From Escherichia coli (GTDB taxonomy: Bacteria; Pseudomonadota; Gammaproteobacteria; Enterobacterales; Enterobacteriaceae): DNA of 64,000 bases. The stretch is from NCBI RefSeq assembly GCF_036507355.1, contig NZ_AP027877.1; one strand, given 5' to 3'. The position numbers were made by a program, and so were the translations under genes. The number at the start of each line of letters is the position of its first letter. Within the stretch, counting starts at the first letter, position 1. The notes beneath the pieces were generated by a model, which worked only from the letters and a program-made list of their open reading frames with translations, was not told the DNA's origin and searched no databases. Positions 3,336 through 64,000 of this stretch are shown here, piece after piece.

Positions 3336-4268
3336 ATGCTGAATAGCTGGCCTTTAGCCAAAGATTTGCAGGTACTGGTAGAAATCGTCCACAGCGGGAG
3401 TTTTAGCGCCGCAGCGGCGACCCTTGGGCAAACGCCTGCATTCGTCACCAAGCGGATCCAAATCCTTGAAAATACGCTGGCAACAACGCTGCTGAACCGA
3501 TCCGCTCGCGGCGTGGCGCTGACTGAAAGTGGCCAACGTTGTTACGAACATGCGCTGGAAATCCTCACCCAATATCAGCGACTGGTCGATGACGTCACGC
3601 AAATCAAAACGCGCCCGGAGGGGATGATTCGTATTGGCTGTAGTTTTGGTTTTGGGCGCAGCCATATTGCGCCAGCCATTACCGAACTGATGCGCAATTA
3701 TCCTGAGTTACAGGTGCATTTTGAATTGTTCGATCGACAAATTGATTTAGTGCAGGATAATATTGATCTGGATATTCGTATTAATGACGAAATTCCTGAT
3801 TATTATATTGCGCATCTGTTAACGAAAAATAAAAGAATATTATGCGCAGCACCTGAGTATCTGCAAAAATATCCGCAGCCACAATCCTTACAGGAATTAA
3901 GTCGTCATGACTGTCTGGTGACCAAAGAGCGCGATATGACCCACGGAATATGGGAGTTGGGGAACGGTCAGGAGAAAAAATCGGTGAAGGTTAGCGGGCA
4001 TCTTTCCTCCAATAGCGGCGAGATAGTGCTGCAATGGGCGCTGGAGGGCAAAGGGATTATGCTGCGTTCCGAGTGGGATGTGTTGCCGTTTCTGGAGAGT
4101 GGCAAACTGGTGCGAGTATTGCCGGAGTATGCACAAAGCGCCAATATCTGGGCTGTTTACCGGGAGCCGCTCTATCGCAGCATGAAATTACGTGTCTGCG
4201 TGGAATTTCTGGCGGCATGGTGCCAGCAACGGCTGGGCAAGCCCGATGAAGGCTATCAGGTCATGTAG
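3336..4268 (+). CDS. ttdR: LysR-family transcriptional activator of the ttd operon
   Basis: 310-aa ORF with N-terminal HTH and LysR substrate-binding domain, divergent from ttdA. Confidence 0.9.
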
Positions 4269-4280
4269 ATCCACCAGAAA

Positions 4281-4898
4281 TCACTCGGGATCCTTTTCGC
4301 GCTTTCTTTTGAATTTCGTCCAGATTTTTGTCTCCTGACGACGCCACAGACGCTGGATGTTGTCATGATGACGCAGCAGGATCAGGCAAGAGAGCATCGA
4401 AACCGGGAAGGTGAATTGTGGCTTAAACCACCAGACATAAAACGGAGCAATCAGTGCACTGACAATCGCTCCCAGCGACGAGTATCCGCTCAATAGCACG
4501 GTCAGTAACCAGGTTCCCGCCATTACTCCGGTGAGATCCCAGCCAATGGGTGCGATGGCACCAAAAGCGGTAGCAACGCCTTTTCCTCCTTTAAAACCGA
4601 AGAAAACGGGCCAGATGTGTCCAAGACAGGCGGCGATGGCAATTAAGCCTAGCCAGAAGGGGCTGACACCTAATTCATACGCGCCCCAGACAGGCAACAT
4701 TCCTTTCAGAACGTCGAAAATCAGTACTGCTACGGCTGCTCCCTTGCCACCGATACGTAACACATTGGTTGCGCCAGGATTGCCGGAGCCGCTGGTTCGC
4801 GGATCGGGCAGCCCACACAAGCGGCAAACCAGAATGGCACTGGAAATGGAGCCGCAGAGGTACGCGATGAGGATCATTCCAGGCGCGATTGCACTCAT
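4281..4898 (-). CDS. plsY: Glycerol-3-phosphate acyltransferase PlsY
   Basis: 205-aa membrane protein, PlsY/YgiH family. Confidence 0.9.
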
Positions 4899-5002
4899 AA
4901 GCTGTTCCGTTTTGAAAATTCGTGTTCAACGATGAATCTGTGGATAATACGCACATTTCGCCGGAAGTGGTATCCGGTTAGCCAAAAAGCAGGCAGGACG
5001 TG

Positions 5003-5371
5003 ATGGATATTGTATTTATAGAGCAACTTTCGGTAATCACCACTATTGGTGTTTACGACTGGGAACAGACCATCGAACAGAAGTTAGTGTTCGATATCGA
5101 AATGGCGTGGGATAACCGTAAAGCGGCGAAAAGTGATGATGTGGCGGATTGCCTCAGCTACGCTGACATTGCAGAAACGGTGGTCAGCCACGTCGAGGGG
5201 GCTCGTTTTGCGCTGGTGGAGCGCGTGGCGGAAGAGGTGGCGGAGCTGCTGTTAGCACGCTTCAACTCGCCGTGGGTGCGTATCAAACTCAGCAAGCCAG
5301 GCGCAGTGGCGCGGGCGGCGAATGTTGGCGTAATCATTGAGCGTGGCAATAATCTGAAAGAAAATAATTAA
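5003..5371 (+). CDS. folB: Dihydroneopterin aldolase
   Basis: ORF 5000..5371; MDIVFIEQLSVITTIGVYDWEQ... typical FolB; start at second ATG. Confidence 0.9.
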   Translation: MDIVFIEQLSVITTIGVYDWEQTIEQKLVFDIEMAWDNRKAAKSDDVADCLSYADIAETVVSHVEGARFALVERVAEEVAELLLARFNSPWVRIKLSKPGAVARAANVGVIIERGNNLKENN

Positions 5372-5461
5372 TTTTACAGCTGTTAAACCAAACGGTTATA
5401 ACCTGGTCATACTGCAGTAGTTCGGACAAGCGGTACATTTTAATAATTTAGGGGTTTATTG

Positions 5462-6283
5462 ATGAGCGATATGCACTCGCTGCTGATAGCGGCAATATTG
5501 GGTGTGGTCGAAGGATTGACAGAATTTCTGCCGGTATCCAGCACGGGCCATATGATTATTGTCGGTCACTTGTTGGGGTTTGAGGGCGACACGGCGAAAA
5601 CCTTTGAAGTTGTGATCCAGTTAGGATCAATTCTGGCGGTAGTAGTGATGTTCTGGCGGCGTCTGTTTGGCCTGATTGGCATCCACTTTGGCCGCCCGTT
5701 GCAGCACGAAGGTGAAAGCAAAGGTCGTTTAACGCTGATCCACATTTTGCTGGGGATGATTCCGGCGGTGGTACTGGGGCTGTTGTTCCACGACACGATT
5801 AAGTCATTGTTTAACCCGATAAATGTGATGTATGCGCTGGTCGTTGGCGGTTTGTTGCTGATTGCCGCCGAATGCCTGAAGCCGAAAGAGCCGCGTGCGC
5901 CGGGTCTTGATGATATGACCTATCGTCAGGCGTTTATGATTGGCTGTTTCCAGTGTCTGGCGCTGTGGCCGGGTTTCTCCCGTTCTGGGGCGACCATTTC
6001 AGGTGGGATGCTGATGGGGGTGAGCCGTTACGCTGCTTCCGAGTTTTCGTTCCTGCTGGCGGTGCCGATGATGATGGGCGCAACGGCGCTCGATCTCTAC
6101 AAAAGCTGGGGCTTCCTGACAAGCGGCGATATCCCGATGTTTGCCGTTGGGTTTATCACCGCTTTTGTGGTGGCGCTGATAGCGATTAAAACCTTCCTGC
6201 AATTGATTAAGCGCATTTCGTTTATCCCGTTCGCCATTTATCGCTTTATTGTGGCGGCTGCGGTGTATGTCGTGTTCTTTTGA
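5462..6283 (+). CDS. uppP: Undecaprenyl-diphosphate phosphatase (BacA/UppP)
   Basis: ORF 5459..6283; 273-aa polytopic membrane protein, BacA family. Confidence 0.9.
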
Positions 6284-6289
6284 TTGAGG

Positions 6290-6372
6290 AATAGTGTCGG
6301 ATGCCTGGCGTTGTCCAAGATTGCGTAGGCCGAATAAGGCGTTCACGCCGCATCCGGCAAAATGCCCAATAC
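6290..6372. repeat. REP (repetitive extragenic palindromic) element
   Basis: gccggatgcggcgtgaacgccttattcggcctac-type palindromic unit between uppP and cca. Confidence 0.7.
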
Positions 6373-7611
6373 TCATTCAGGCTTTGGGCAACGTTGTTCC
6401 TTCCAGCTGGCTACCGCCGCAATCCGCCGTCGGGTCAGCTCCTCGCGAATCTCCACACCTTTAAATCCCGCTTCAACGACGGCTTTTGTCGGCACTGACT
6501 GCGCCACTTCCCAGGCTTCGCGCAACCAACGGCCTTGCGGGTAGTCCGCTGATTCAAAACCGGTTCTGCCGCGCACGTCAGCCTCGCTGGTCAGCGCCAG
6601 TTGCTCGACACGCTGCGGTTTACGCCAGGCATCGATGGAATCAAATAATTTGACGATGGTTTTTGGGTTCAGCATTGGGAAGGTGTGGATGAGATCGTGA
6701 AACTCAGCCACCAGTCTGGCTAAATCGCGAATTTCATTTGGCACGCGCAGACGCTGGCATAGTTGTTCCACTAACTTAACACCCGCCGGGCCATGACCAT
6801 GATGACGCGGCCAGAGTTCTGGCGGCGTCAGTCCTTTACCGAGATCGTGGCATAAAGTTGCGAAACGGACATCGACCTGCGGACTCAGCATCGCCGCCAT
6901 TGAGAGCGTCATTAAGGTATGAATACCCGTGTCGATTTCCGGATGCCACTTGGCAGGGGCCGGAACACCAAACAGGGCGTCAATTTCCGGGAATAAAACG
7001 CGCAGTGCGCCGCAATCGCGCAGTACCTGGAAGAACACCTGTGGATTGCGGGTGGTGAGGGCGTTTTCTGTCTCTTTCCATACCCGTTCAGGCGTCAGGT
7101 GTTCCAGTTCACCCGCATGGGTCATCTCGCGCATCAACGCCAGAGTTTCATCGGCAATACGAAAACCGAGGTGGGCATAACGCGCAGCAAAACGCGCCAC
7201 GCGCAATACGCGTAACGGATCTTCGCCAAAAGCGGGGGAAACATGGCGCAACAGACGATTTTGCAGATCGCCCAGACCGTTGTACGGGTCGATAATCTCG
7301 CCGTTATCGTCCTGGGCCAGCGCATTAATGGTCAGATCGCGACGCTTAAGATCATCTTCCAGCGTGACATCCGGTGCGGCATAGCAGGTAAAACCGGTGT
7401 AACCGGAGCCGGATTTCCGTTCGGTACGTGCCAGCGCATACTCTTCATGCGTTTGCGGATGCAGAAACACAGGAAAATCGCGGCCTACCTGCTGGTAGCC
7501 CGCGTCGAGCATCTCCTGTGGCGTAGTGCCGACCACTACCCAATCTCTGTCTTTGACCGGTAGCCCTAACAATGCATCCCGAACAGCACCACCGACCAGA
7601 TAAATCTTCAC
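6373..7611 (-). CDS. cca: CCA-adding tRNA nucleotidyltransferase
   Basis: 412-aa ORF, N-terminal GG.VRD nucleotidyltransferase motif and HD domain (LCHDLGKG). Confidence 0.92.
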
Positions 7612-7674
7612 GCCATCATCCCTTCGTCAAATACACAATTCCTAATAATAAGACAGTGCAACGAAGAAGGCGAT

Positions 7675-8295
7675 TTAGTTCATCCAGCGATCTTTGCGTT
7701 TGCGGCTTGGGATCAGGTGCGGCAGTACCAGACCGAGCAGCAAGCCAAGCCCCAGCACGCCACCGCCATACATAAACCATTGCATGATGATGGTGCGCTG
7801 TTTGTCATCCAGCTGTACGCTGGCGGCATCGACCTTTTTCTGTGCGACAATCAGCTCGTTTTTCAGTTTCTGATTTTCTTCTTTTAACCCGTTGATCACG
7901 CTGTCGCTCTGCGCCACTTTTTGCTGCATTTCTGCGGTGCGCTGATTCCAGGTGTTATCGATATTGGTGAGTTTATCGGTCAGGGTTTTGACCTGATTTT
8001 CCAGATCTGGCACACGGGAGCGCAGGCTTGGCTCAGTGCTAAGTTGTTTCAACGGGATCCAGGCGGTACGGCCAGAGCTGTCTTTCACCTGGGCATAATT
8101 GGTGTTGGCGTCAGTTTGTAATAAGGTCACTTCCTCGCCGGCGTTAACCGTGCCCACGAGGCGATAATGATCTCCCGGACCGCTGCGGACCCAGGTATTC
8201 AGTTCGTCGGAAACATAGCGCGTTTCTTCAGCGTGTGAGACGGCAGTCGCGCTAAGTGCGAGTAAAGTTAATCCGATCAGGCGTAATTTTGGCAT
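7675..8295 (-). CDS. ygiM: SH3-domain protein with signal peptide and C-terminal membrane anchor
   Basis: 206-aa ORF; signal peptide, coiled-coil, C-terminal TM helix. Confidence 0.85.
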   Translation of the reverse strand: MPKLRLIGLTLLALSATAVSHAEETRYVSDELNTWVRSGPGDHYRLVGTVNAGEEVTLLQTDANTNYAQVKDSSGRTAWIPLKQLSTEPSLRSRVPDLENQVKTLTDKLTNIDNTWNQRTAEMQQKVAQSDSVINGLKEENQKLKNELIVAQKKVDAASVQLDDKQRTIIMQWFMYGGGVLGLGLLLGLVLPHLIPSRKRKDRWMN

Positions 8296-8536
8296 CAGGC
8301 TGTCGTTATTGTCATGGAAAGTGGAACGATAGTAGTGGCATCAGTGTCGCTACGCAAAGCATTCGACATCAATCGGAATCCTCTGTGTCAGGTCTTGCCA
8401 CTGCTTCAAACTTTTACGCCCGTCAAATTGCCCGTTGCATGGCAATTTGGCGCAAAATACTATCTACTGACAAAAAAGATCGCATTAAGTTCGCCGTTCA
8501 TCGTCACTTATGTGACATAACCGATAAGTAAAGGCC

Positions 8537-9838
8537 ATGGCTCAGGAAATCGAATTAAAGTTTATTGTTAATCACAGTGCCGTTGAGGCGTTGCGTGACC
8601 ATCTCAATACGCTGGGCGGCGAGCACCATGACCCCGTGCAGTTGCTGAATATTTACTACGAAACGCCGGATAACTGGCTGCGTGGGCACGATATGGGCCT
8701 GCGTATTCGTGGCGAAAACGGTCGCTATGAGATGACCATGAAAGTCGCAGGAAGAGTGACAGGCGGCTTACACCAGCGCCCGGAATATAACGTGGCGTTG
8801 AGCGATCCGACGCTCGACCTGGCGCAGTTTCCCTCGGAAGTCTGGCCGAACGGCGAATTGCCTGCCGATCTCGCTTCCCGCCTACAACCGCTGTTCAGCA
8901 CCGATTTTTATCGCGAAAAATGGCTGGTGGCGGTCGATGGCAGCCGAATTGAAATCGCTCTCGATCAGGGGGAGGTGAAAGCGGGGGAATTTGCTGAATC
9001 TATCTGTGAGCTGGAACTGGAACTGCTTAGCGGCGACACGCGCGCGGTGCTGAAACTGGCGAACCAACTGGTATCGCAAACCGGATTACGCCAGGGCAGC
9101 CTGAGCAAAGCGGCGCGTGGCTATCATCTGGCGCAGGGCAATCTGGCGCGTGAAATCAAACCGACCACCATTTTGCATGTTGCGGCAAAAGCCGATGTGG
9201 AACAGGGGCTGGAAGCGGCGCTCGAGCTGGCGTTAGCGCAATGGCAGTATCATGAAGAACTGTGGGTACGCGGCAACGATGCGGCGAAAGAACAGGTGCT
9301 GGCAGCCATTAGCTTGGTCCGTCATACGCTGATGCTGTTCGGTGGTATTGTGCCGCGTAAAGCGAGCACTCACTTACGTGATTTGCTGACCCAATGCGAA
9401 GCGACCATTGCTTCTGCGGTTTCTGCCGTGACGGCGGTCTACTCTACCGAAACGGCAATGGCGAAGCTGGCGTTGACCGAATGGTTGGTAAGCAAAGCAT
9501 GGCAGCCATTTTTAGATGCCAAAGCGCAGGGCAAAATCAGCGACTCCTTCAAACGCTTTGCCGATATCCATCTTTCCCGCCATGCCGCTGAACTGAAAAG
9601 CGTTTTCTGCCAGCCGTTAGGCGATCGCTACCGTGACCAGTTGCCACGCCTGACGCGTGATATTGACTCAATACTGTTGCTGGCGGGTTACTATGATCCT
9701 GTCGTCGCGCAAGCCTGGCTGGAGAACTGGCAGGGGCTGCATCACGCTATTGCGACCGGGCAACGCATCGAAATTGAACATTTCCGTAATGAGGCAAACA
9801 ATCAGGAACCGTTCTGGTTGCACAGCGGAAAACGTTAA
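8537..9838 (+). CDS. ygiF: Inorganic triphosphatase (CYTH domain)
   Basis: 433 aa; N-terminal EIELKF CYTH signature. Confidence 0.9.
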
Positions 9839-9860
9839 TCAGGCAAGGATAAAATCGCTT

Positions 9861-12701
9861 ATGAAGCCGCTCTCTTCACCGTTACAGCAGTACTGGCAGA
9901 CCGTTGTTGAGCGGCTGCCAGAGCCTTTAGCCGAGGAATCACTTAGCGCACAGGCGAAGTCAGTACTTACTTTTAGTGACTTTGTGCAGGACAGCGTGAT
10001 TGCGCATCCAGAGTGGCTGACGGAACTGGAAAGCCAACCGCCGCAGGCCGACGAATGGCAGCATTACGCGGCATGGTTGCAGGAGGCGCTCATTAATGTG
10101 AGTGACGAAGCCGGGTTAATGCGCGAGCTGCGGCTGTTCCGTCGGCGCATCATGGTACGTATCGCCTGGGCGCAAACGCTGGCACTGGTTACTGAAGAGA
10201 GCATATTGCAGCAGCTCAGCTATCTGGCGGAGACGCTGATTGTTGCGGCGCGTGACTGGCTATATGACGCCTGCTGCCGCGAGTGGGGAACGCCGTGCAA
10301 TGCGCAGGGCGAAGCGCAACCGCTGCTGATTTTAGGCATGGGTAAGCTGGGCGGCGGGGAACTGAATTTCTCCTCTGATATCGATCTGATTTTTGCCTGG
10401 CCGGAACATGGTTGTACGCAGGGTGGACGCCGGGAACTGGATAACGCGCAGTTTTTTACCCGCATGGGGCAGCGGCTGATTAAAGTGCTGGATCAACCAA
10501 CGCAGGATGGCTTCGTCTATCGCGTGGATATGCGGCTGCGTCCGTTTGGCGAAAGTGGCCCGCTGGTGCTGAGCTTTGCGGCGCTGGAAGATTATTACCA
10601 GGAGCAGGGGCGCGACTGGGAGCGTTACGCGATGGTCAAGACGCGGATTATGGGCGATAGCGAAGGCGTCTATGCTAACGAGTTGCGTGCGATGCTGCGC
10701 CCGTTTGTTTTCCGTCGTTACATCGATTTCAGTGTGATTCAGTCGCTGCGCAACATGAAAGGAATGATTGCCCGTGAAGTGCGTCGACGCGGTTTGACCG
10801 ACAACATCAAACTTGGCGCGGGTGGCATTCGCGAAATTGAATTTATCGTCCAGGTGTTCCAGCTCATTCGCGGTGGGCGTGAACCGTCGCTGCAATCGCG
10901 CTCTTTACTGCCAACGCTCAGCACCATTGCCGCGCTGCATCTGCTTTCTGAAAACGATGCCGAACAATTACGAGTCGCATATCTGTTCCTGCGGCGTCTG
11001 GAAAACCTGCTGCAAAGCATTAACGACGAACAAACCCAGACGCTTCCTTCTGATGAGCTTAACCGTGCGCGGCTGGCGTGGGCGATGGACTTTGCTGACT
11101 GGCCGCAATTGACCGTGGCGCTGACCGCACATATGACCAATGTGCGCCGGGTGTTTAATGAATTGATTGGCGACGATGAAAGTGAAACTCAGGAAGAGTC
11201 GCTGTCGGAACAGTGGCGTGAGCTGTGGCAGGATGCGTTGCAGGAAGATGACACCACGCCAGTGCTGGCACATCTTAGCGAAGATGATCGCAAACAGGTG
11301 CTAATGCTGATTGCTGATTTCCGCAAAGAGCTGGATAAGCGCACAATCGGGCCGCGAGGACGTCAGGTGCTCGACCATCTGATGCCGCATCTGCTAAGTG
11401 ATGTCTGTGCGCGTGAAGACGCTGCTGTCACGTTGTCGCGCATTACCGCCTTGCTGGTGGGGATTGTTACCCGCACAACCTATTTAGAATTGCTCAGTGA
11501 ATTCCCTGCGGCGCTTAAGCATTTGATTTCTCTGTGTGCCGCATCGCCGATGATTGCCAGCCAGCTAGCGCGTTATCCATTATTGCTGGATGAACTGCTC
11601 GATCCAAACACGCTCTACCAACCGACGGCAACCGATGCTTACCGTGATGAGTTGCGCCAGTATTTGCTGCGCGTGCCGGAAGATGACGAAGAACAACAGC
11701 TTGAGGCGCTGCGTCAGTTCAAACAGGCGCAGCTGTTACGCATCGCCGCAGCGGATATCGCCGGTACGCTACCGGTGATGAAAGTGAGCGATCACTTAAC
11801 CTGGCTGGCGGAAGCTATGATAGATGCCGTCGTTCAGCAGGCGTGGGTTCAAATGGTGGCCCGCTACGGTAAGCCAAATCACCTCAACGAACGCGAAGGG
11901 CGTGGTTTTGCGGTGGTCGGCTACGGCAAGCTGGGCGGCTGGGAGTTAGGCTACAGTTCCGATCTTGACCTGATCTTCCTCCATGATTGCCCAATGGATG
12001 CGATGACTGACGGCGAGCGGGAAATCGACGGACGACAGTTTTATCTGCGTCTGGCGCAACGCATTATGCACCTGTTCAGCACGCGAACCTCTTCCGGCAT
12101 TTTGTACGAAGTGGATGCGCGGCTGCGCCCGTCCGGGGCGGCGGGAATGCTGGTGACATCCGCAGAAGCATTTGCCGATTATCAGAAAAACGAGGCCTGG
12201 ACGTGGGAACATCAGGCGCTGGTGCGTGCGCGTGTAGTGTACGGCGATCCGCAGCTCACCGCGCACTTTGACGCGGTGCGTCGTGAGATTATGGCGCTGC
12301 CGCGCGAAGGCAAAACCCTGCAAACAGAAGTGCGGGAAATGCGCGAGAAAATGCGCGCTCATCTCGGCAATAAACATCGCGATCGCTTTGATATCAAAGC
12401 CGATGAAGGCGGAATTACCGATATCGAATTTATTACCCAATATCTGGTGTTGCGCTACGCTCATGAAAAACCGAAGTTAACGCGCTGGTCAGACAACGTG
12501 CGCATTCTGGAACTGCTGGCGCAAAACGACATTATGGAAGAGCAGGAAGCGATGGCGCTGACCCGTGCTTACACGACGCTTCGCGATGAACTTCATCATC
12601 TGGCATTACAGGAATTGCCGGGCCATGTGTCGGAGGATTGCTTCACCGCAGAGCGTGATTTGGTGCGGGCAAGCTGGCAGAAGTGGCTGGTGGAAGAATG
12701 A
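9861..12701 (+). CDS. glnE: Glutamine synthetase adenylyltransferase / adenylyl-removing enzyme
   Basis: ORF track starts at 9657 but start placed at ATG 9861 ([13 protein letters not shown], 946 aa); two nucleotidyltransferase motifs GKLGG.EL..SD.DL. Confidence 0.92.
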
Positions 12702-12748
12702 AGTATGGTATTATCGCGCGCAAATTTTGAATCTCTCAGGAGACAGGA

Positions 12749-14182
12749 ATGAAAGTAACGCTGCCAGAGTTTGAACGAGCAGGAGTGATGGTGGTTGGTG
12801 ATGTGATGCTGGATCGTTACTGGTACGGTCCCACCAGCCGTATCTCGCCGGAAGCGCCGGTGCCCGTGGTTAAAGTGAATACCATCGAAGAACGCCCGGG
12901 CGGCGCGGCTAACGTGGCGATGAATATCGCTTCTCTCGGTGCTAATGCACGTCTGGTCGGGTTGACGGGCATTGACGATGCAGCGCGCGCGCTGAGTAAA
13001 TCTCTGGCCGACGTCAACGTCAAATGCGACTTCGTTTCTGTACCGACGCATCCGACCATCACCAAATTACGGGTACTTTCCCGCAACCAACAGCTGATCC
13101 GTCTGGATTTTGAAGAAGGTTTTGAAGGTGTTGATCCGCAGCCGCTGCACGAGCGGATTAATCAGGCGCTGAGTTCGATTGGCGCGCTGGTGCTTTCTGA
13201 CTACGCCAAAGGTGCGCTGGCAAGCGTACAGCAGATGATCCAACTGGCGCGTAAAGCGGGCGTTCCGGTGCTGATTGATCCAAAAGGTACCGATTTTGAG
13301 CGCTACCGCGGCGCTACGCTGTTAACGCCGAATCTCTCGGAATTTGAAGCTGTTGTCGGTAAATGTAAGACCGAAGAAGAGATTGTTGAGCGCGGCATGA
13401 AACTGATTGCCGATTACGAACTCTCGGCTCTGTTAGTGACCCGTTCCGAACAGGGTATGTCGCTGCTGCAACCGGGTAAAGCGCCGCTGCATATGCCAAC
13501 CCAAGCGCAGGAAGTGTATGACGTTACCGGTGCGGGCGACACGGTGATTGGCGTCCTGGCGGCAACGCTGGCAGCGGGTAATTCGCTGGAAGAAGCCTGC
13601 TTCTTTGCCAATGCGGCGGCTGGTGTGGTGGTCGGCAAACTGGGGACGTCCACGGTTTCGCCGATCGAGCTGGAAAACGCTGTACGTGGACGCGCAGATA
13701 CCGGCTTTGGCGTGATGACCGAAGAGGAACTGAAGCTGGCTGTAGCGGCAGCGCGTAAACGTGGTGAAAAAGTGGTAATGACCAACGGTGTCTTCGATAT
13801 CCTACATGCCGGACACGTCTCTTATCTGGCAAATGCCCGCAAGCTGGGTGACCGCTTGATTGTTGCCGTCAACAGCGATGCCTCCACCAAACGGCTGAAA
13901 GGGGATTCCCGCCCGGTAAACCCACTCGAACAGCGTATGATTGTGCTGGGCGCACTGGAAGCGGTCGACTGGGTAGTGTCGTTTGAAGAAGACACGCCGC
14001 AGCGTCTGATCGCCGGGATCCTGCCAGACCTGCTGGTGAAAGGCGGTGACTACAAACCGGAAGAGATCGCCGGGAGTAAAGAAGTCTGGGCCAACGGCGG
14101 CGAAGTGTTGGTGCTCAACTTTGAAGACGGTTGCTCGACCACTAACATTATCAAGAAGATCCAACAGGATAAAAAAGGCTAA
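12749..14182 (+). CDS. hldE: Bifunctional D-beta-D-heptose 7-phosphate kinase / heptose 1-phosphate adenylyltransferase
   Basis: 477 aa; N-terminal ribokinase-like domain and C-terminal cytidylyltransferase motif [12 protein letters not shown]. Confidence 0.93.
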
Positions 14183-14261
14183 CCGGAAAGCGGTTCACAG
14201 ATCTCGCTTCGTACATGGCAGGCCTATTGACGCTGTTGTTTTTTCAACCTAGAGTAAAGGA

Positions 14262-14410
14262 ACAAGGGTAAGGGAGGATTTCTCCCCCCTCTGATGAGTT
14301 GTTAGTAAGTCGGGAAACTTAACAGTAACAACACAACCAGTATGATGACGAGCTTCATCATAACCCTTTCCTTCTATAAGGCCCCTTCCTCGGGAGGGGC
14401 TTTCCCGTTT
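14262..14410 (+). ncRNA. sibE: Sib-family antisense sRNA (antitoxin), copy proximal to hldE
   Basis: Promoter TTGACG(14227-32)-17 bp-TAGAGT(14250-55); terminator hairpin gcccctTcc/ggaggggc + U-tract at 14380-14410; fully antisense to the ibs ORF; ends approximate; D/E naming by synteny only. Confidence 0.7.
14302..14361 (-). CDS. ibsE: Ibs-family type I toxin, 19 aa (MMKLVIILVVLLLLSFPTY)
   Basis: Hand-translated minus-strand ORF, ATG 14361 to TAA 14302-04; hydrophobic 19-mer typical of Ibs; below ORF-track size cut-off. Confidence 0.75.
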   Translation of the reverse strand: MMKLVIILVVLLLLSFPTY

Positions 14411-14637
14411 CAGCCCCTTGCTGTCTCCCCGATTGTTGATGAGCGCCGGACCCCGCGCAACGCTTTCCCTGAAGCAGTTTTGCCTTCCCCGAGCGGTCAC
14501 GCAAAACGCTGCAACGTCCTGAGCATTTGCACCTTTTAGCGGAACGCAGATATAAAAAATCCCCGGCTTTTTGGGCCAGGGATATGTGTTAATGAAACCT
14601 TCTTGACGCTGATTTTTTTTCAACCTAAAGTAAAGGA

Positions 14638-14786
14638 ACAAGGGTGAGGGAGGATTTCTCCCCCCTCTGATTGGCTGTTAATAAGCTGCGAAACTTACGA
14701 GTAACAACACAATCAGTATGATGACGAGCTTCATCATAACCCTTTCCTTCTGTAAGGCCCCTTCCTCGGGAGGGGCTTTCCCGTTT
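14638..14786 (+). ncRNA. sibD: Sib-family antisense sRNA (antitoxin), copy proximal to yqiK
   Basis: Promoter TTGACG(14603-08)-17 bp-TAAAGT(14626-31); same terminator hairpin at 14756-14786; antisense to second ibs ORF. Confidence 0.7.
14678..14737 (-). CDS. ibsD: Ibs-family type I toxin, 19 aa (MMKLVIILIVLLLVSFAAY)
   Basis: Hand-translated minus-strand ORF, ATG 14737 to TAA 14678-80; paralog of the copy at 14302..14361. Confidence 0.75.
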   Translation of the reverse strand: MMKLVIILIVLLLVSFAAY

Positions 14787-14929
14787 CAGCCCTTTGCTGA
14801 CTCCCCGATTGTTGATGAGCGCCGGACCTCGCGCAACGCTTTCCCTGAAGCAGTTTTGCCTTCCCCGAGCAGTCACGCAAAACGCTGCAACAGCCTGATC
14901 ATTTGCACCTTTTAGCGGAACGCAGATAT

Positions 14930-14965
14930 AAAAAATCCCCGGCTTTTTGTGCCAGGGATGTTCAT
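14930..14965 (-). terminator. Intrinsic terminator downstream of yqiK
   Basis: Minus-strand hairpin cccuggc/gccgggg followed by AUUUUUUAU directly after the yqiK stop; a near-identical copy lies at 14555-14590. Confidence 0.6.
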
Positions 14966-14975
14966 AGCTGAAAAT

Positions 14976-16637
14976 TTATTCTACGTTTTCGGCGACGGGA
15001 GTTGTTGAGGTTAAGGGTGAAGTCAATGCAGCCAGTGAGCCGCCTGAAACGCCAATTTCATTGAGCAAGGAGTCAATCAGTGGTGCCTGTGTGCGGTAAG
15101 AGAGTGCGGCTGATAATGCTTGTTCCGCCAGGTTTCCGCCCCCCACATTACCCGTGTTTGCATCCCCCGCAGTACCACCACGATTCAGTCCATCGACCTG
15201 TATGATCTTAATACCATCGATCGACTTCATCGGCTCAACGGATTTCTCAATTACCGCAGGCAGCGCCTGCAATAATGCCAGTTTGAATTTAAGGCTGGTT
15301 TGTTCATCAGAAAGTACGTTGATAGCATCGTTCAGCGCACGTTGCGCTTCTGCTTCCGCCAGACCCTTTTTACGTGTAGCTTCGGCTAACTCAACGATAG
15401 CCGCCGCCTGCATCTCTGCGGCTTCTTTTTCTGCTTTTGCCCGCACGGTCAGTTCAACCGCTTTGGTTTCTGCATCCTGCGCGGCAGCGATTAGGGCAAC
15501 TTGTTTAGCACGATCGGCTTCTGCGGTCTGGCGAGTGGTTCCAACGTTTTGTTGGGCGCTTACTGCTTCTGCGAGTGCAAGGTTAGCACGCGCTTCTGCC
15601 TGGGACTGTTGTTCCGATTTGGCGGCAATAGCGATCGATTTCGTCTGGTTAGCGATTTCGGTGACCTGCTGCTGTTCGATCTCTTTAATGCGAACTTCAC
15701 GTTCAGCTTCAACTTTTCTTGAGCGGACGGCCTGTTCGCGGTCGATTTCTGTTTCCTGAATCTGTCGTTCAGCCAGAATTCGCGTCTGCTCTGCTTCACG
15801 ACGACGTTCAGCTTCAAAAGCCGCAATTTTCGCATTCTGCTCAGCGGTACGGGTTTTAACCTGCTGCTCCTGCTCAAGCGTCATAAACGCTTCTTGTTGT
15901 TCAATCTCCAACTTGCGCGAAAGTGCATCACGGTTTTTCTCACGCACCGCAACTTCTACATCCTGTTCAACTTCGTTACGCTCGCGGCGACGGCGCTCCG
16001 TCTCCTGAGTCAGTTTGGTTAAACCTTCGGCGTCAAAGGCATTGTTCGGATTGAAATGTTCTTTCGAGGTCTGGTTAAAGTTGGTAAGTGAAACGCTTTC
16101 CAGTTCCAGGCCGTTTTTCGACAGATCTTCAGCTACGGTATTTTGTACTCCCTGCACGAAGTTCTCGCGGGTATCCTGTAACTCATGCATGGTCATTTGT
16201 GCAGCTGTTGCACGGAGGGCATCGACGAATTTATCTTCAACCAACATACGTAAATCTTCTGGTGATAGCGTGCGTTGCCCCAACGTTTGGGCAGCGGTGG
16301 CAATCCCTTCTACTGAAGGTTTTACCCGCACAAAGAAAGCGACTACTACATCGACGCGCATACGATCTTTCGTAATCAGGCTATCAATGGTTGAGCGGCT
16401 GACTTCCAGCTTCAGAGTATTCATATTGATGGGGATTATTTCATGAAAGATCGGCATCACGATTGCGCCACCGCTCATTACCACTTTTTGCCCACCTAAA
16501 CCAGTACGAACAAAAGCTTGCTCTGCCGAAGCTCGACGATAGAGCCTGGCGAAAATAATTCCAATAATAAACAGAATGCATACGGCAATAATCGCGGTAA
16601 ACATCCAGGAGGGCACAGAATTAACAATATCATCCAT
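14976..16637 (-). CDS. yqiK: Flotillin-like SPFH/band-7 family membrane protein
   Basis: 553 aa; N-terminal TM helix, SPFH domain, long Ala/Glu/Lys/Arg-rich coiled-coil. Confidence 0.9.
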   Translation of the reverse strand: MDDIVNSVPSWMFTAIIAVCILFIIGIIFARLYRRASAEQAFVRTGLGGQKVVMSGGAIVMPIFHEIIPINMNTLKLEVSRSTIDSLITKDRMRVDVVVAFFVRVKPSVEGIATAAQTLGQRTLSPEDLRMLVEDKFVDALRATAAQMTMHELQDTRENFVQGVQNTVAEDLSKNGLELESVSLTNFNQTSKEHFNPNNAFDAEGLTKLTQETERRRRERNEVEQDVEVAVREKNRDALSRKLEIEQQEAFMTLEQEQQVKTRTAEQNAKIAAFEAERRREAEQTRILAERQIQETEIDREQAVRSRKVEAEREVRIKEIEQQQVTEIANQTKSIAIAAKSEQQSQAEARANLALAEAVSAQQNVGTTRQTAEADRAKQVALIAAAQDAETKAVELTVRAKAEKEAAEMQAAAIVELAEATRKKGLAEAEAQRALNDAINVLSDEQTSLKFKLALLQALPAVIEKSVEPMKSIDGIKIIQVDGLNRGGTAGDANTGNVGGGNLAEQALSAALSYRTQAPLIDSLLNEIGVSGGSLAALTSPLTSTTPVAENVE

Positions 16638-17298
16638 TATTAAATTTCCTTTTGATTAATAAATTACAATATTTGGGGCCAGGGATTGTTTTCCGCCAAA
16701 TATCGCGTTGCAGAAAGTCGGCAAATAATTAACACTTTGTCTCCTTTAGTGAAAATTTTTCCTTCTTCAGGCTCCAGTAGTAAATAATGTATTTGGCCAA
16801 ATTGATCGGTGAGTTTTCCTTCGCAGGGATTACCTGAAGTGGCTTGATGACCGGTAATTAATGCCATGCTACCAATATATTCTTCTTCTGTAATAGCTGA
16901 ACTATGGTCGCGTGGAATCCAGGGCGCAACTATTTTACCGGTATAATGCACCGCAATAATCGTAAACAGTAAACTGACAGGAACCACGAACAGGTTCGAC
17001 AGTGGTGATTGCCAGACCATGATGCAGGCATGCTGCAACAGGATGCCAATAAGACCAAAAAAACCAGCCAGCAAGCAGAGAACGACGAGAGCTGGCAATC
17101 TTCCGATATTGAGATAATGAAGTGCCTGGCTAATATGACCTGTGGTTATGGAATCATAATGGTCAAGATGTGCATCAAGAGCACCGGAGAGCATGTGACC
17201 GCAGATAAGCGCTAAAATTTCTAAAAGGCCGATCAACAGTACAGGTGATGCTGCCAACTTACTGATTTAGTGTATGATGGTGTTTTTGAGGTGCTCCA

Positions 17299-50961: not shown

Positions 50962-51387
50962 ATGGCAATGCATCTTAACGAAAACCTCGACGATAACGGC
51001 GAAATGCATGATATCAACGTGACGCCGTTTATCGACGTGATGTTGGTTCTGCTGATTATCTTTATGGTGGCGGCACCGTTAGCGACGGTAGATGTGAAGG
51101 TTAACTTGCCTGCTTCTACCAGCACGCCGCAGCCGCGCCCGGAAAAACCGGTTTATCTGTCGGTGAAGGCAGACAACTCGATGTTTATCGGTAACGATCC
51201 GGTCACCGATGAAACAATGATTACGGCGTTGAATGCGTTAACCGAAGGTAAGAAAGACACCACCATCTTCTTCCGAGCGGACAAAACCGTCGATTACGAG
51301 ACGTTGATGAAGGTAATGGATACGCTGCATCAGGCGGGTTATCTGAAGATAGGCCTGGTCGGCGAAGAAACCGCTAAAGCGAAGTAA
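50962..51387 (+). CDS. exbD: TonB-system energizer ExbD
   Basis: 141 aa, single N-terminal TM helix. Confidence 0.95.
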   Translation: MAMHLNENLDDNGEMHDINVTPFIDVMLVLLIIFMVAAPLATVDVKVNLPASTSTPQPRPEKPVYLSVKADNSMFIGNDPVTDETMITALNALTEGKKDTTIFFRADKTVDYETLMKVMDTLHQAGYLKIGLVGEETAKAK

Positions 51388-51396
51388 AGTAGAATT

Positions 51397-51615
51397 GCCT
51401 GATGCGCTACGCTCATCAGGCCTACAAAATCTATTGCAACATGTTGAATCTTCGTGCGTTTGTAGGCCGGATAAGGCGTTCACGCCGCATCCGGCATTAG
51501 GTGCTCAATGCCTGATGCGCTACGCTTATCAGGCCTACAAAATCTATTGCAACATGTTGAATCTTCATGCGTTTGTAGGCGGATAAGGCGTTTTCGCCAC
51601 ATCAGGTAAGAGTGA
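51397..51615. repeat. BIME-type REP cluster: two tandem ~113-bp units
   Basis: gcctgatgcgctacgctYatcaggcctacaaaatctattgcaacatgttgaatcttcRtgcgtttgtaggc... repeated at 51397 and 51510. Confidence 0.85.
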
Positions 51616-61416: not shown

Positions 61417-61897
61417 AGAGATAGCAGGCTTCCAGACCTCCCCGAAGGCGCAAGTACAGGCAGCATTTGAAGAAATTGCCCGGCGTTCGATGCACGATCT
61501 CTCTTTTCTGCATCCTTCAATGCCGGTGTATGTTTCTGATTTTACGCTGTTCGAAGGTCAGTGGACGGGGTGTGTGATCACCCCGTGGATGCTGAGTGCG
61601 GTTATCTTCCCCGGCCCGGATCAACTCTGGCCGCTGCGCAAAGTGAGTGAAAAAATTGGTCTGCAACTGCCGTATGGCACCATGACCTTTACCGTTGGCG
61701 AACTGGACGGTGTTTCGCAATACCTCTCCTGTTCGCTGATGTCACCGCTTTCGCACAGTATGTCGATTGAAGAGGGCCAACGCCTGACGGATGACTGCGC
61801 ACGAATGATCCTTTCACTGCCAGTCACGAATCCGGATGTACCACACGCAGGGCGTCGCGCCCTGCTGTTTGGTCGCAGGAGTGGCGAAAATGCATGA
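61409..61897 (+). CDS. hybE: Hydrogenase-2 operon chaperone HybE
   Basis: ORF 61334..61897; start at ATG 61409 (MTEEIAGFQ..., 162 aa), overlapping the hybD stop. Confidence 0.88.
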   Translation: MTEEIAGFQTSPKAQVQAAFEEIARRSMHDLSFLHPSMPVYVSDFTLFEGQWTGCVITPWMLSAVIFPGPDQLWPLRKVSEKIGLQLPYGTMTFTVGELDGVSQYLSCSLMSPLSHSMSIEEGQRLTDDCARMILSLPVTNPDVPHAGRRALLFGRRSGENA

Positions 61898-62231
61898 GTT
61901 GTCGCTTTGCCAGAGTGCCGTTGAAATTATCCAACGGCAGGCGGAGCAGCACGATGTTAAGCGCGTCACCGCCGTGTGGCTGGAAATTGGCGCGCTCTCC
62001 TGCGTTGAGGAGAGCGCCGTCCGTTTTAGTTTTGAAATTGTCTGCCACGGAACGGTGGCGCAAGGGTGCGATTTACATATCGTCTATAAACCCGCCCAGG
62101 CCTGGTGCTGGGATTGCAGCCAGGTGGTGGAGATTCATCAGCACGATGCGCAGTGTCCGCTCTGTCACGGCGAGCGGTTGCGTGTCGATACCGGCGATTC
62201 GCTGATCGTCAAAAGTATTGAAGTTGAATAA
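61890..62231 (+). CDS. hybF: Hydrogenase nickel-incorporation protein (HypA paralog)
   Basis: ORF 61836..62231; start at ATG 61890 (MHELSLCQSAVEII..., 113 aa); CxxC...CPLCHG zinc motif. Confidence 0.9.
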   Translation: MHELSLCQSAVEIIQRQAEQHDVKRVTAVWLEIGALSCVEESAVRFSFEIVCHGTVAQGCDLHIVYKPAQAWCWDCSQVVEIHQHDAQCPLCHGERLRVDTGDSLIVKSIEVE

Positions 62232-62243
62232 CCGGAGTTAACA

Positions 62244-62492
62244 ATGTGTATTGGCGTTCCAGGCCAGGTGCTGGCTGTCGGTGAAGATATTCACCAGCTT
62301 GCGCAGGTTGAAGTATGTGGTATCAAGCGCGACGTGAATATCGCCCTGATTTGTGAAGGTAACCCTGCCGATCTACTGGGCCAGTGGGTGCTGGTACACG
62401 TCGGATTTGCCATGAGCATCATCGACGAAGATGAAGCCAAAGCCACATTAGACGCACTGCGCCAAATGGATTACGACATTACCAGCGCGTGA
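62244..62492 (+). CDS. hybG: Hydrogenase maturation chaperone (HypC paralog)
   Basis: 82 aa beginning MCIGVPGQV. Confidence 0.92.
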
Positions 62493-62499
62493 TGATTAG

Positions 62500-62610
62500 C
62501 TTTCGTAGGTCTGATAAGACGCGGCAGCGTCGCATCAGGCATTGTGCTCGATTGCCGGATGCGGCGTGAACGCCTTATCCGGCCTGGATGGCTTGCTGCG
62601 ACGAACGCTA
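62500..62610. repeat. REP element(s) between hybG and yghU
   Basis: gtaggtctgataagacgcggcagcgtcgcatcaggc and gccggatgcggcgtgaacgccttatccggcc palindromic units. Confidence 0.75.
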
Positions 62611-62614
62611 ACCC

Positions 62615-63481
62615 TTACCCCTGACGCTTATCTTCCGTATTCGTCTCAAAATCACTGGCGTCATGGCGCTCATGCAACTGCTCGTTCAGCGGCCCGTTGG
62701 TGCGGTTAACAATACGCCCACGTTTCACCGCCGGACGTTCGCCCACTTCTTTTGCCCAGCGTTGCACATGCTTATAACTGCCCGCATCAAGAAACTCTGC
62801 GGCATCATATACGCCGCCTAATACCACATTGCCAAACCACGGCCAAATCGCCATATCCGCAATGGTGTACTCATCGCCCGCAACAAACTTATGCTGCGCC
62901 AGTTGCTTATCCAGCACGTCGAGCAGACGTTTGGCTTCCATGGTAAAGCGATTGATGGCGTACTCAATTTTCACCGGCGCGTAATGGTAAAAGTGACCAA
63001 AACCACCGCCGAGGAACGGCGCGGCACCCTGTAGCCAGAACAGCCAGTTCATTGCTTCAGTACGTTTAGCCAGATCCTGCGGCAAGAAGTAGCCAAATTT
63101 TTCTGCCAGATAAAGCAGGATCGAACCAGACTCAAACACGCGGATCGGCGGATTATGCGTATGATCGCGCAGCGCCGGGATCTTCGAGTTTGGGTTCACT
63201 TCGACAAAGCCGCTGGAGAATTGATCGCCATCGCCTATGCGTATCAGCCAGGCGTCGTACTCTGCACCAGTAACGCCCAGCGCCAGCAGCTCCTCAAGCA
63301 TAATCGTTACTTTCTGACCGTTCGGCGTTCCCAGCGAATAAAGTTGCAATGGATGTTTGCCAACGGGCAGCGTTTTTTCATGCGTCGGACCAGAAACCGG
63401 GCGATTGATATTGGCGAACGCGCCGCCAGCGGATTTATCCCACGTCCAGACTTTCGCGGGCTGATAAGTATTGTCTGTCAT
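62615..63481 (-). CDS. yghU: Glutathione S-transferase-like disulfide reductase (Nu class)
   Basis: ORF 62615..63529; start at ATG 63481 (MTDNTYQPAKVWTWDKSAGG..., 288 aa). Confidence 0.9.
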   Translation of the reverse strand: MTDNTYQPAKVWTWDKSAGGAFANINRPVSGPTHEKTLPVGKHPLQLYSLGTPNGQKVTIMLEELLALGVTGAEYDAWLIRIGDGDQFSSGFVEVNPNSKIPALRDHTHNPPIRVFESGSILLYLAEKFGYFLPQDLAKRTEAMNWLFWLQGAAPFLGGGFGHFYHYAPVKIEYAINRFTMEAKRLLDVLDKQLAQHKFVAGDEYTIADMAIWPWFGNVVLGGVYDAAEFLDAGSYKHVQRWAKEVGERPAVKRGRIVNRTNGPLNEQLHERHDASDFETNTEDKRQG

Positions 63482-63685
63482 AGTGAGTTGCCTTCTGAGT
63501 GGTAGTGTTGAAGCAGTGTAGCAGGTCACTTGCTGTACAGAATGTGAATTTTTTAACCCTTTGCGCCAGCCGCTGCGATGAGGTGTATGATTAGTCTGAC
63601 CTCTGTCCGGTTAATGTCGCTGAGCAGGTAATCAGAGCACAACAATTACGCCAACTGCTTAGGTTGTATTGTTAAAGGTAAAGTG

Positions 63686-64000
63686 ATGAGCAAAGGAACG
63701 ACCAGCCAGGATGCCCCGTTCGGGACATTATTGGGCTACGCCCCAGGTGGGGTAGCAATCTACTCTTCAGATTACAGTTCTCTCGATCCGCAGGAATACG
63801 AAGATGACGCCGTATTCCGTAGCTATATCGACGACGAATATATGGGCCACAAATGGCAATGCGTTGAATTTGCTCGCCGTTTTCTCTTTCTGAACTACGG
63901 TGTGGTCTTTACTGACGTGGGTATGGCGTGGGAGATTTTCTCGCTGCGCTTCCTGCGTGAAGTGGTTAATGACAACATCCTGCCATTGCAGGCATTTCCT
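63686..64000 (+). CDS. gss: Bifunctional glutathionylspermidine synthetase/amidase, 5' part (runs off window end)
   Basis: ATG 63686, MSKGTTSQDAPFGTLLGYAPGGVAIYSSDY...; CHAP-type amidase domain N-terminus; divergent from yghU. Confidence 0.88.
   Translation, partial: MSKGTTSQDAPFGTLLGYAPGGVAIYSSDYSSLDPQEYEDDAVFRSYIDDEYMGHKWQCVEFARRFLFLNYGVVFTDVGMAWEIFSLRFLREVVNDNILPLQAFP

Follow-up and report, generated by a model that had tools for sequence, protein, structure and literature searches.

Introduction

The closest described relatives of the element analysed here are the Y- and Z2-type REPs of Escherichia coli and the composite arrangements in which such units occur, namely BIME-2, in which Y and Z2 units alternate in orientation, and REPINs, in which two inverted REPs with outward-facing tails are able to form one long hairpin. 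The E. coli REP transposase TnpA_REP strictly needs the GTAG motif and tolerates no change in it. Its cognate RAYT/TnpA_REP gene, yafM, is present in E. coli K-12, and BIME-2 elements have been reported to bind DNA gyrase strongly (Nunvar, 2010). REP325, the BIME-2 between the tandem genes yjdM and yjdN, comprises 12 units and is the source of naRNA4, an RNA whose role in the nucleoid has been questioned (Harris, 2026, preprint).

At the RNA level, Rho-dependent transcripts have been found to have their steady-state ends just past stable hairpins without a U-tract; the hairpins shield the RNA from PNPase and RNase II, and REPs coincide with 24% of these ends (Dar and Sorek, 2018). REP325 lowers transcription downstream of it some 8- to 10-fold, partly via Rho, and stabilises the mRNA upstream, and REPs are present in about 30% of the convergent gaps of E. 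coli (207/704), where both flanking genes are more expressed; the bidirectional terminators that have been defined by sequence between convergent genes contain 78 REPs (Harris, 2026, preprint). REPs also serve as landing sites for IS621, a bridge-RNA recombinase element whose natural target in REPs is ATCAGGCCTAC, with the core CT (Durrant, 2024).

Here we describe the REP pair between hybG, the last gene of the hyb (hydrogenase-2) operon, and the convergent gene yghU in a 64,000-nt stretch of E. coli DNA (the window), together with its alleles, its occupation by IS621 and its probable part in shaping the 3' ends of the two transcripts.

Materials and Methods

The gene names hybG and yghU follow the RefSeq annotation of E. 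coli O145 RM9872 and K-12 MG1655. In the 322 bp compared (window 62393-62714), RM9872 and the window have the same sequence. K-12 3138208-3156000 runs colinearly with the window, in reversed orientation and at 98.7% identity; MG1655 coordinates were obtained as 3202208 minus the window coordinate. REP units were scored against Y and Z2 consensus sequences that agree with Table 1 of Nunvar (2010) and with the methods of Durrant (2024). The Rfam model RF02564 (naRNA4) represents one Y+Z2 pair of REP325 and in effect recognises any Y+Z2 pair.

Published evidence on transcript ends was taken from Adams (2021; PMC7815308), Supplementary file 2 of which gives K-12 DirectRNA-seq with and without bicyclomycin as counts in 800-nt windows. 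No paper naming both hybG and yghU was found among the papers searched, and neither gene is mentioned in the supplements of the TERMITe paper, in those of the REP preprint of Harris (2026) or in the 200 supplementary files of Durrant (2024).

Alleles were surveyed in 5,426 complete E. coli genomes. BLAST coverage cannot single out the four-unit allele, as genomes with two units also reach 80%. Matches labelled as plasmid were mostly in records of 0.8-4.9 Mb, which look chromosomal, and were not taken as evidence of plasmid-borne copies.

Results

Architecture of the gap

The two genes converge on a gap of 122 bp from stop to stop (62493-62614), which has the same length in K-12; coordinates and length had been given exactly in a preliminary description of this DNA, as the ORF list confirms. 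The features of the locus are collected in Table 1.

Table 1. Features of the hybG-yghU locus, in coordinates of the window
Feature	Coordinates	Strand	Basis or remark
hybG CDS, last gene of the hyb (hydrogenase-2) operon	62244-62492	+	ORF list; RefSeq annotation (RM9872, K-12)
hybG stop codon TGA	62490-62492	+	ORF list
Spacer, 12 nt, from the hybG stop to the GTAG tail of the Z2 unit	62493-62504	.	sequence
Z2-type REP unit, GTAG/CTAC tail toward hybG	62505-62541	-	consensus match, half-site scans
Linker TTGTGCTCGAT, 11 nt, head-to-head	62542-62552	.	sequence
Y-type REP unit	62553-62587	+	consensus match, half-site scans, inverted repeat
Spacer, 27 nt, before the yghU stop	62588-62614	.	
yghU stop codon TAA	62615-62617	-	
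yghU CDS, 288 aa, convergent with hybG	62615-63481	-	ORF list; RefSeq annotation
C-rich, G-poor stretch past the REPs on the hyb strand, holding ~62678	62588-62937	+	C/G 1.3-2.3 per 100 nt
Stretch with C>G past the REPs on the yghU strand, holding ~62239	62105-62404	-	C/G about 1.4-1.6

Two REP units lie in the gap, which bears out the earlier report of two REP-like palindromes here. The first, read on the minus strand, is TGCCTGATGCGACGCTGCCGCGTCTTATCAGACCTAC and agrees with the Z2 consensus at 35 of 37 positions; the second, read on the plus strand, is TGCCGGATGCGGCGTGAACGCCTTATCCGGCCTGG and agrees with the Y consensus at 33 of 35. Both units are extragenic, wholly between the stops of hybG and yghU, and face each other head-to-head with their tails outward. 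Including the linker, the pair accounts for 83 bp of the gap (62505-62587) and, contrary to the earlier claim, does not fill it entirely but leaves the 12 and 27 nt of the two spacers. A scan for the REP consensus, which the preliminary description had suggested as a check, thus returned one Z2 and one Y unit at levels above chance: scans of the 64-kb window with the head and tail half-sites gave 5 matches each, where 0.71 and 0.50 would be expected, and none of 100 shuffles yielded as many.

The GTAG tail is kept on the Z2 unit (GTAGG at 62505-62509), which otherwise carries CAGACC where CAGGCC is usual. The Y unit is without its CTAC tail both in the window and in K-12 (CCTGG, not CCTAC), owing to a 10-bp deletion relative to the alleles of strains EcN and DG351-2. 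With this tail lost, the Y unit is probably immobile and no longer a substrate of TnpA_REP; the gene yafM itself is outside the 64-kb window. When each unit was folded on both strands, the single-unit hairpins had energies of -15.4 to -21.3 kcal/mol, depending on the strand, and in each fold two stems are separated by an internal loop (2x2 or 1x1), the typical REP bulge. An alternative fold of the plus strand pairs both units in one long hairpin of -45.4 kcal/mol, and the z-scores for folding of a 151-nt region were -2.9 and -2.8 on the two strands. Base pairing in the Z2 hairpin begins at 62509, 16 nt past the hybG stop.

In the 27-nt spacer, GCTTGCTGCGACG (62591-62603) matches the Z2 head at 11 of 13 positions; it may be a decayed REP fragment, the remnant of a third unit, or a chance match. 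A 55-aa ORF with a TTG start (62542-62709, plus strand), which begins in the linker and extends antisense into yghU, was taken as spurious, and a promoter scan found none in the hybG-yghU gap. The K-12 RefSeq record has no REP features in the gap; this silence is uninformative, because the control locus REP325 is likewise unannotated there.

Comparison with described repeat families

Judged by its sequence, the element is an ordinary Z2+Y REP pair, BIME-2-type or REPIN-like, and of a kind that is already known; the repeat to which it belongs is the most abundant dispersed one in the E. coli genome. With the Y and Z2 REPs of E. coli it shares the sequence, the bulged imperfect palindrome, the extragenic position in a 3' UTR and the high copy number, the median E. 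coli genome having at least 36 such places; it differs from them in the tail-less Y unit and in the CAGACC of the Z2 unit. The alternating orientation of Y and Z2 and a number of units that varies among strains (1, 2 or 4) are common to this locus and BIME-2. REP325, in comparison, has 12 units where there is one pair here, and stands between genes in tandem rather than between convergent genes. The 11-nt linker is conserved among the E. coli alleles and diverges in sequence from the linker of REP325/naRNA4.

The full length of RF02564 (model positions 1-77 of 77) was matched at 62508-62584 on the minus strand, with 84.8 bits against a gathering threshold of 59.5 and an E-value of 1e-13; the plus strand, with 57 bits, was below threshold. 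As in REPINs, two inverted REPs with tails outward are able to form one long hairpin, the differences being that one terminal CTAC is deleted here and that the arms are of unlike REP types (Z2 and Y). In strains EcN and DG351-2 both ends of the element are REPIN-like (GTAG...CTAC).

Three REP loci are present in the 64-kb window. A single Y-type unit lies at 6325-6358 on the minus strand (GTAGGCCGAATAAGGCGTTCACGCCGCATCCGGCA). The exbD-yghA gap (51323-51600) holds a larger BIME, built from Z1 and Y units that a long linker (AAAATCTATTGCAACATGTTGAATCTTC...) joins tail-to-tail, and similar to the BIME-1 type with its IHF site; a naRNA4 match of 68.1 bits lies within it at 51465-51535 (+). Other RNA families matched in the window were two tandem SIB RNA antitoxin genes (RF00113; 14227-14376 and 14603-14752, both +; 141 and 147.7 bits), an FMN riboswitch (RF00050; 18996-19144, +; 120.9 bits) and the ES173 sRNA (RF02753; 45621-45684, -; 99 bits).

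Transcript ends and Rho dependence

Both REP hairpins lack a following U-tract, whichever strand is read, and the scan for terminators gave no site in 62493-62614; for these two reasons the REP pair is not an intrinsic terminator. Over a wider region (61800-63700) the scan returned 6 terminator-like sites against 2.4 expected. A hairpin resembling a terminator, at 61992-62027 (+), is inside the coding sequence of hybF; its stem has 10 bp and its tail is rich in T (GCGCTCTCCTGCGTTGAGGAGAGCGC CGTCCGTTTT).

Regions of Rho-dependent termination have been reported for K-12 on both strands (Adams, 2021; PMC7815308). The one on the hyb strand is at MG1655 3139530 (-), which corresponds to ~62678 in the window, 64 nt inside the antisense of yghU; reads upstream and downstream were 95/24 in untreated cells and 160/135 with bicyclomycin (Rho score 3.34, p = 7.8e-7). 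On the yghU strand the region is at MG1655 3139969 (+), or ~62239 in the window, past hybG at the hybF-hybG junction, with 52/21 reads untreated and 39/66 with bicyclomycin (Rho score 4.19, p = 8.7e-6). Both positions thus lie beyond the gap, by 64 nt on the hyb strand and by about 250 nt on the yghU strand. Calculated from the same counts, the read density past the REPs on the hyb strand of K-12 is ~25% in untreated cells and ~84% with Rho inhibited, in 800-nt windows that leave the exact termination point unfixed and with downstream reads that may stem from other promoters. The stretches past the REPs are richer in C than in G on both transcript strands (Table 1), which is consistent with Rho loading, although the antisense strands of genes are C-rich in general.

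These data bear on the proposal in the preliminary description that the hyb transcript probably has its 3' boundary at the REPs, against which it had set hyb transcripts that read through into antisense yghU. Such read-through is published for K-12, at the densities given above. As the site of termination, the proposed boundary agrees poorly with Rho regions that lie beyond the REPs and with the missing U-tract; as the place of the steady-state 3' end, it is plausible. Term-seq, which the same description had named as a check, does not give an end for hyb at the REPs either: the curated Term-seq list has no 3' end in MG1655 3139400-3139999 (Adams, 2021; PMC7815308; aerobic growth, uniquely mapping reads). 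This is a weak negative, as aerobic cells express little hyb and reads from REPs that mapped to several places had been removed.

Natural alleles of the locus

At least two contiguous units are present in 3,839 of the 5,426 genomes, and a single-unit allele in 830. The one-unit allele, exemplified by strain S10EC, has the Y unit only, in a gap of 69 bp. Two units are found in K-12 and in the window (122 bp), and also, with intact tails, in EcN (141 bp). Strain DG351-2 has four units in 231 bp, alternating as Z2, Y, Z2, Y.

In 689 of the 5,426 genomes the Z2 unit contains IS621, with a junction that reads ...CTTATCAGGC-CT followed directly by IS621, i.e. at ATCAGGC-CT-AC of the unit. The 11-mer in the Z2 unit that forms the target is the one common to natural IS621 targets in REPs; it is exact in K-12, while the window differs by one mismatch (ATCAGACCTAC, ATCAGaCCTAC) and is empty. 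A simple insertion of IS621 between hybG and yghU was seen in 4 of 5 further genomes sampled. In IS621-bearing alleles, as read from strain ZYS9073, the end of the element provides a strong 8-bp stem, ACAGCGCC-GTCA-GGCGCTGT, followed by TTTTTTT (1386-1412 of that strain's own stretch). This hairpin with its run of seven T is terminator-like, lies on the hyb strand 79 nt past the hybG stop, and supplants the REP pair as the first structure past the hyb operon.

A more extensive rearrangement is found in strain H3, in which a segment of ~11 kb from hybG to yghA is inverted between oppositely oriented copies of IS621, with the flanks exchanged (3357-17141 of its own stretch). The inverted segment contains hybG-hybO-yghW-yghX-gpr-yqhA-yghA. 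One of the two IS621 copies is in the Z2 unit between hybG and yghU, the other in a Z1 unit of the BIME between yghA and exbD (~51.4-51.6 kb of the window). The H3 arrangement is common to 13 complete genomes from several hosts. In strain NWU_1, a larger rearrangement has its breakpoint at the hybG-yghU REP locus: yghU with its REPs adjoins ybiT instead of hybG, and the annotation shows no IS in between.

The gap in related species

The convergent arrangement of hybG and yghU is kept in Escherichia, Citrobacter, Salmonella enterica subsp. arizonae and Kosakonia, and every convergent gap examined in 13 related species has at least one GC-rich palindrome. Z2 and Y stand head-to-head in E. albertii and in E. 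whittamii, in the latter with uncompensated changes in the Y stem. Several Citrobacter species have two REPs tail-to-tail; a single short hairpin is found in C. sedlakii, C. braakii and K. sacchari, and a hairpin followed by T5 in C. amalonaticus. In Escherichia sp. E1V33 an unrelated GC-rich palindrome (…CCCTCTCCCCGAAGGGGCGAGGGG…) takes the place of the Y unit and looks like another repeat family. Gap contents as diverse as these fit a turnover of repeats in a permissive site, on which there may be weak selection for some 3' structure; there is no sign in the sequences compared that the Z2+Y element itself is conserved across species.

Discussion

The reading that we consider best, with a probability of roughly 0.6, is that the REP pair acts as a two-way exonuclease barrier and possibly as a Rho-assisted attenuator, with Rho terminating both transcripts beyond it. 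It starts from the identity and architecture of the repeats and the missing intrinsic-terminator signature, as determined here, and from the Rho-dependent read-through past the gap published for K-12. It draws support from REP325, which attenuates transcription and also stabilises the mRNA upstream, from the higher expression of convergent pairs with REPs (Harris, 2026, preprint) and from the GC-rich palindrome in the gap of every convergent relative examined. The pair would be transcribed as the tail of both the hyb and the yghU mRNA, in a shared 3' UTR, a usual place for such repeats. RNA polymerase would pass the REP hairpins, which, having no U-tract, would not by themselves stop it, and Rho would terminate both transcripts in the C-rich antisense RNA just past the pair. 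The hairpins would most likely bar the way of the 3'-to-5' exonucleases PNPase and RNase II, so that at steady state the hyb and yghU mRNAs would end at the base of a REP stem; possibly the hairpins also add pausing that aids Rho. Trimming back to the REPs and a stabilising effect at this locus are what we infer from the likeness to the protective 3' ends of Dar and Sorek (2018), with which the locus shares a stable hairpin without a U-tract, a C-rich downstream sequence and bicyclomycin-sensitive read-through nearby; there the ends were mapped, whereas stabilisation at the hybG-yghU REPs would follow by analogy. Against this reading stands that the pair is dispensable in nature, as 830 genomes have a single unit and 689 a Z2 unit split by IS621. 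Also against it are the drift-like changes in the Y stem of E. whittamii, the curated Term-seq list without an end in the gap, and the 800-nt windows of the Rho data, with which a stop at the REPs themselves would be compatible.

That the pair is itself the site of termination, a bidirectional and partly Rho-dependent attenuator and hence the true boundary of hyb, appears rather unlikely to us. The behaviour of REP325, with its attenuation of about 8- to 10-fold and partial dependence on Rho, and the 78 REPs within sequence-defined bidirectional terminators between convergent genes (Harris, 2026, preprint) argue for it, as do BIMEs reported to attenuate transcription (Espeli, 2001, as cited by Dar and Sorek, 2018), and the counts of Adams (2021), made in 800-nt windows, leave room for a drop at the REPs. 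Yet the best-scoring Rho positions are 64 nt and about 250 nt past the gap, the read density that passes the REPs is 84% with bicyclomycin and about 25% without, and the C-rich stretch sits downstream of the REPs, which are themselves poor loading sites for Rho because their C and G contents are roughly equal. We regard it as very improbable that the pair is a classical Rho-independent bidirectional terminator: the two GC-rich hairpins are stable on both strands (-15 to -21 kcal/mol), but no T-run follows the stems, the scan found no site between the two stops, and the read-through is sensitive to bicyclomycin.

A further reading takes the pair for a selfish or neutral REPIN-like repeat, once spread by the REP-associated transposase, settled in a permissive convergent gap and of no meaningful effect on the expression of hyb or yghU. 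Much of the variation described above speaks in its favour, namely a number of units of 1, 2 or 4 among strains with 830 single-unit genomes, disruption of the locus by IS621 in 689, a Y unit without the GTAG/CTAC tail strictly required by the E. coli transposase, the turnover suggested by other REP types and orientations in other genera (tail-to-tail in Citrobacter), and the stem-breaking substitutions in E. whittamii, which are not compensated and look like drift rather than selection on the hairpin. Set against these are the presence of at least one stable GC-rich hairpin in 13 of 13 convergent relatives, even in gaps of 33-50 bp, which fits some selection, and the genome-wide higher expression of convergent pairs that bear REPs (Harris, 2026, preprint), so that we consider neutrality possible but somewhat unlikely. 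A role at the level of DNA or the nucleoid, as a BIME-2-type gyrase site or as a naRNA4-like HU-binding RNA from the yghU 3' UTR, seems improbable. The Y+Z2 composition is that of BIME-2, a reported strong gyrase binder (Nunvar, 2010), and the naRNA4 match on the yghU strand is above threshold; however, the Rfam model accepts any Y+Z2 pair, the linker differs, and a single pair is the smallest possible BIME, with gyrase binding putative.

REPs close to a stop codon have been reported to interfere with translation termination, and the Z2 hairpin might accordingly hamper termination at the hybG stop and lower the output of HybG. The REP unit begins 12 nt and its first paired base 16 nt past the stop, which would favour such an effect; however, 16 unpaired nt probably place the hairpin just outside the footprint of the terminating ribosome, and alleles exist that have an extra 9 bp (EcN) or no Z2 unit at all. 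We hold this reading to be quite improbable.

The natural variation could be given a joint interpretation, in which REP polymorphism tunes the 3' ends of hyb and yghU and thereby hydrogenase-2, and in which paired IS621 landing sites, the Z2 unit here and the BIME between yghA and exbD, allowed the 11-kb inversion of the whole hyb region in some lineages. If so, the one-, two- and four-unit alleles and the IS621 alleles would differ in mRNA 3' ends, stability and antisense read-through, and, in this regulatory interpretation, would differ in hydrogenase-2 levels as a result. Taken as a whole we find this interpretation doubtful and give it little weight.

The REP pair alone matters little, the REP family having been a subject of study since the 1980s. 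Where two genes converge on a REP, the repeat should not be taken for the terminator, because the available K-12 data suggest that Rho acts past it on both strands. Mildly notable are only two points, the allele series and the inversion linked to IS621. The natural series of alleles with 1, 2 and 4 units and with the Z2 unit split by IS621 is a ready test of whether REPs tune the stability of 3' ends, and the occupancy by IS621, together with the 11-kb inversion, exemplifies how REPs serve as hot spots of recombination near an operon of metabolic importance.
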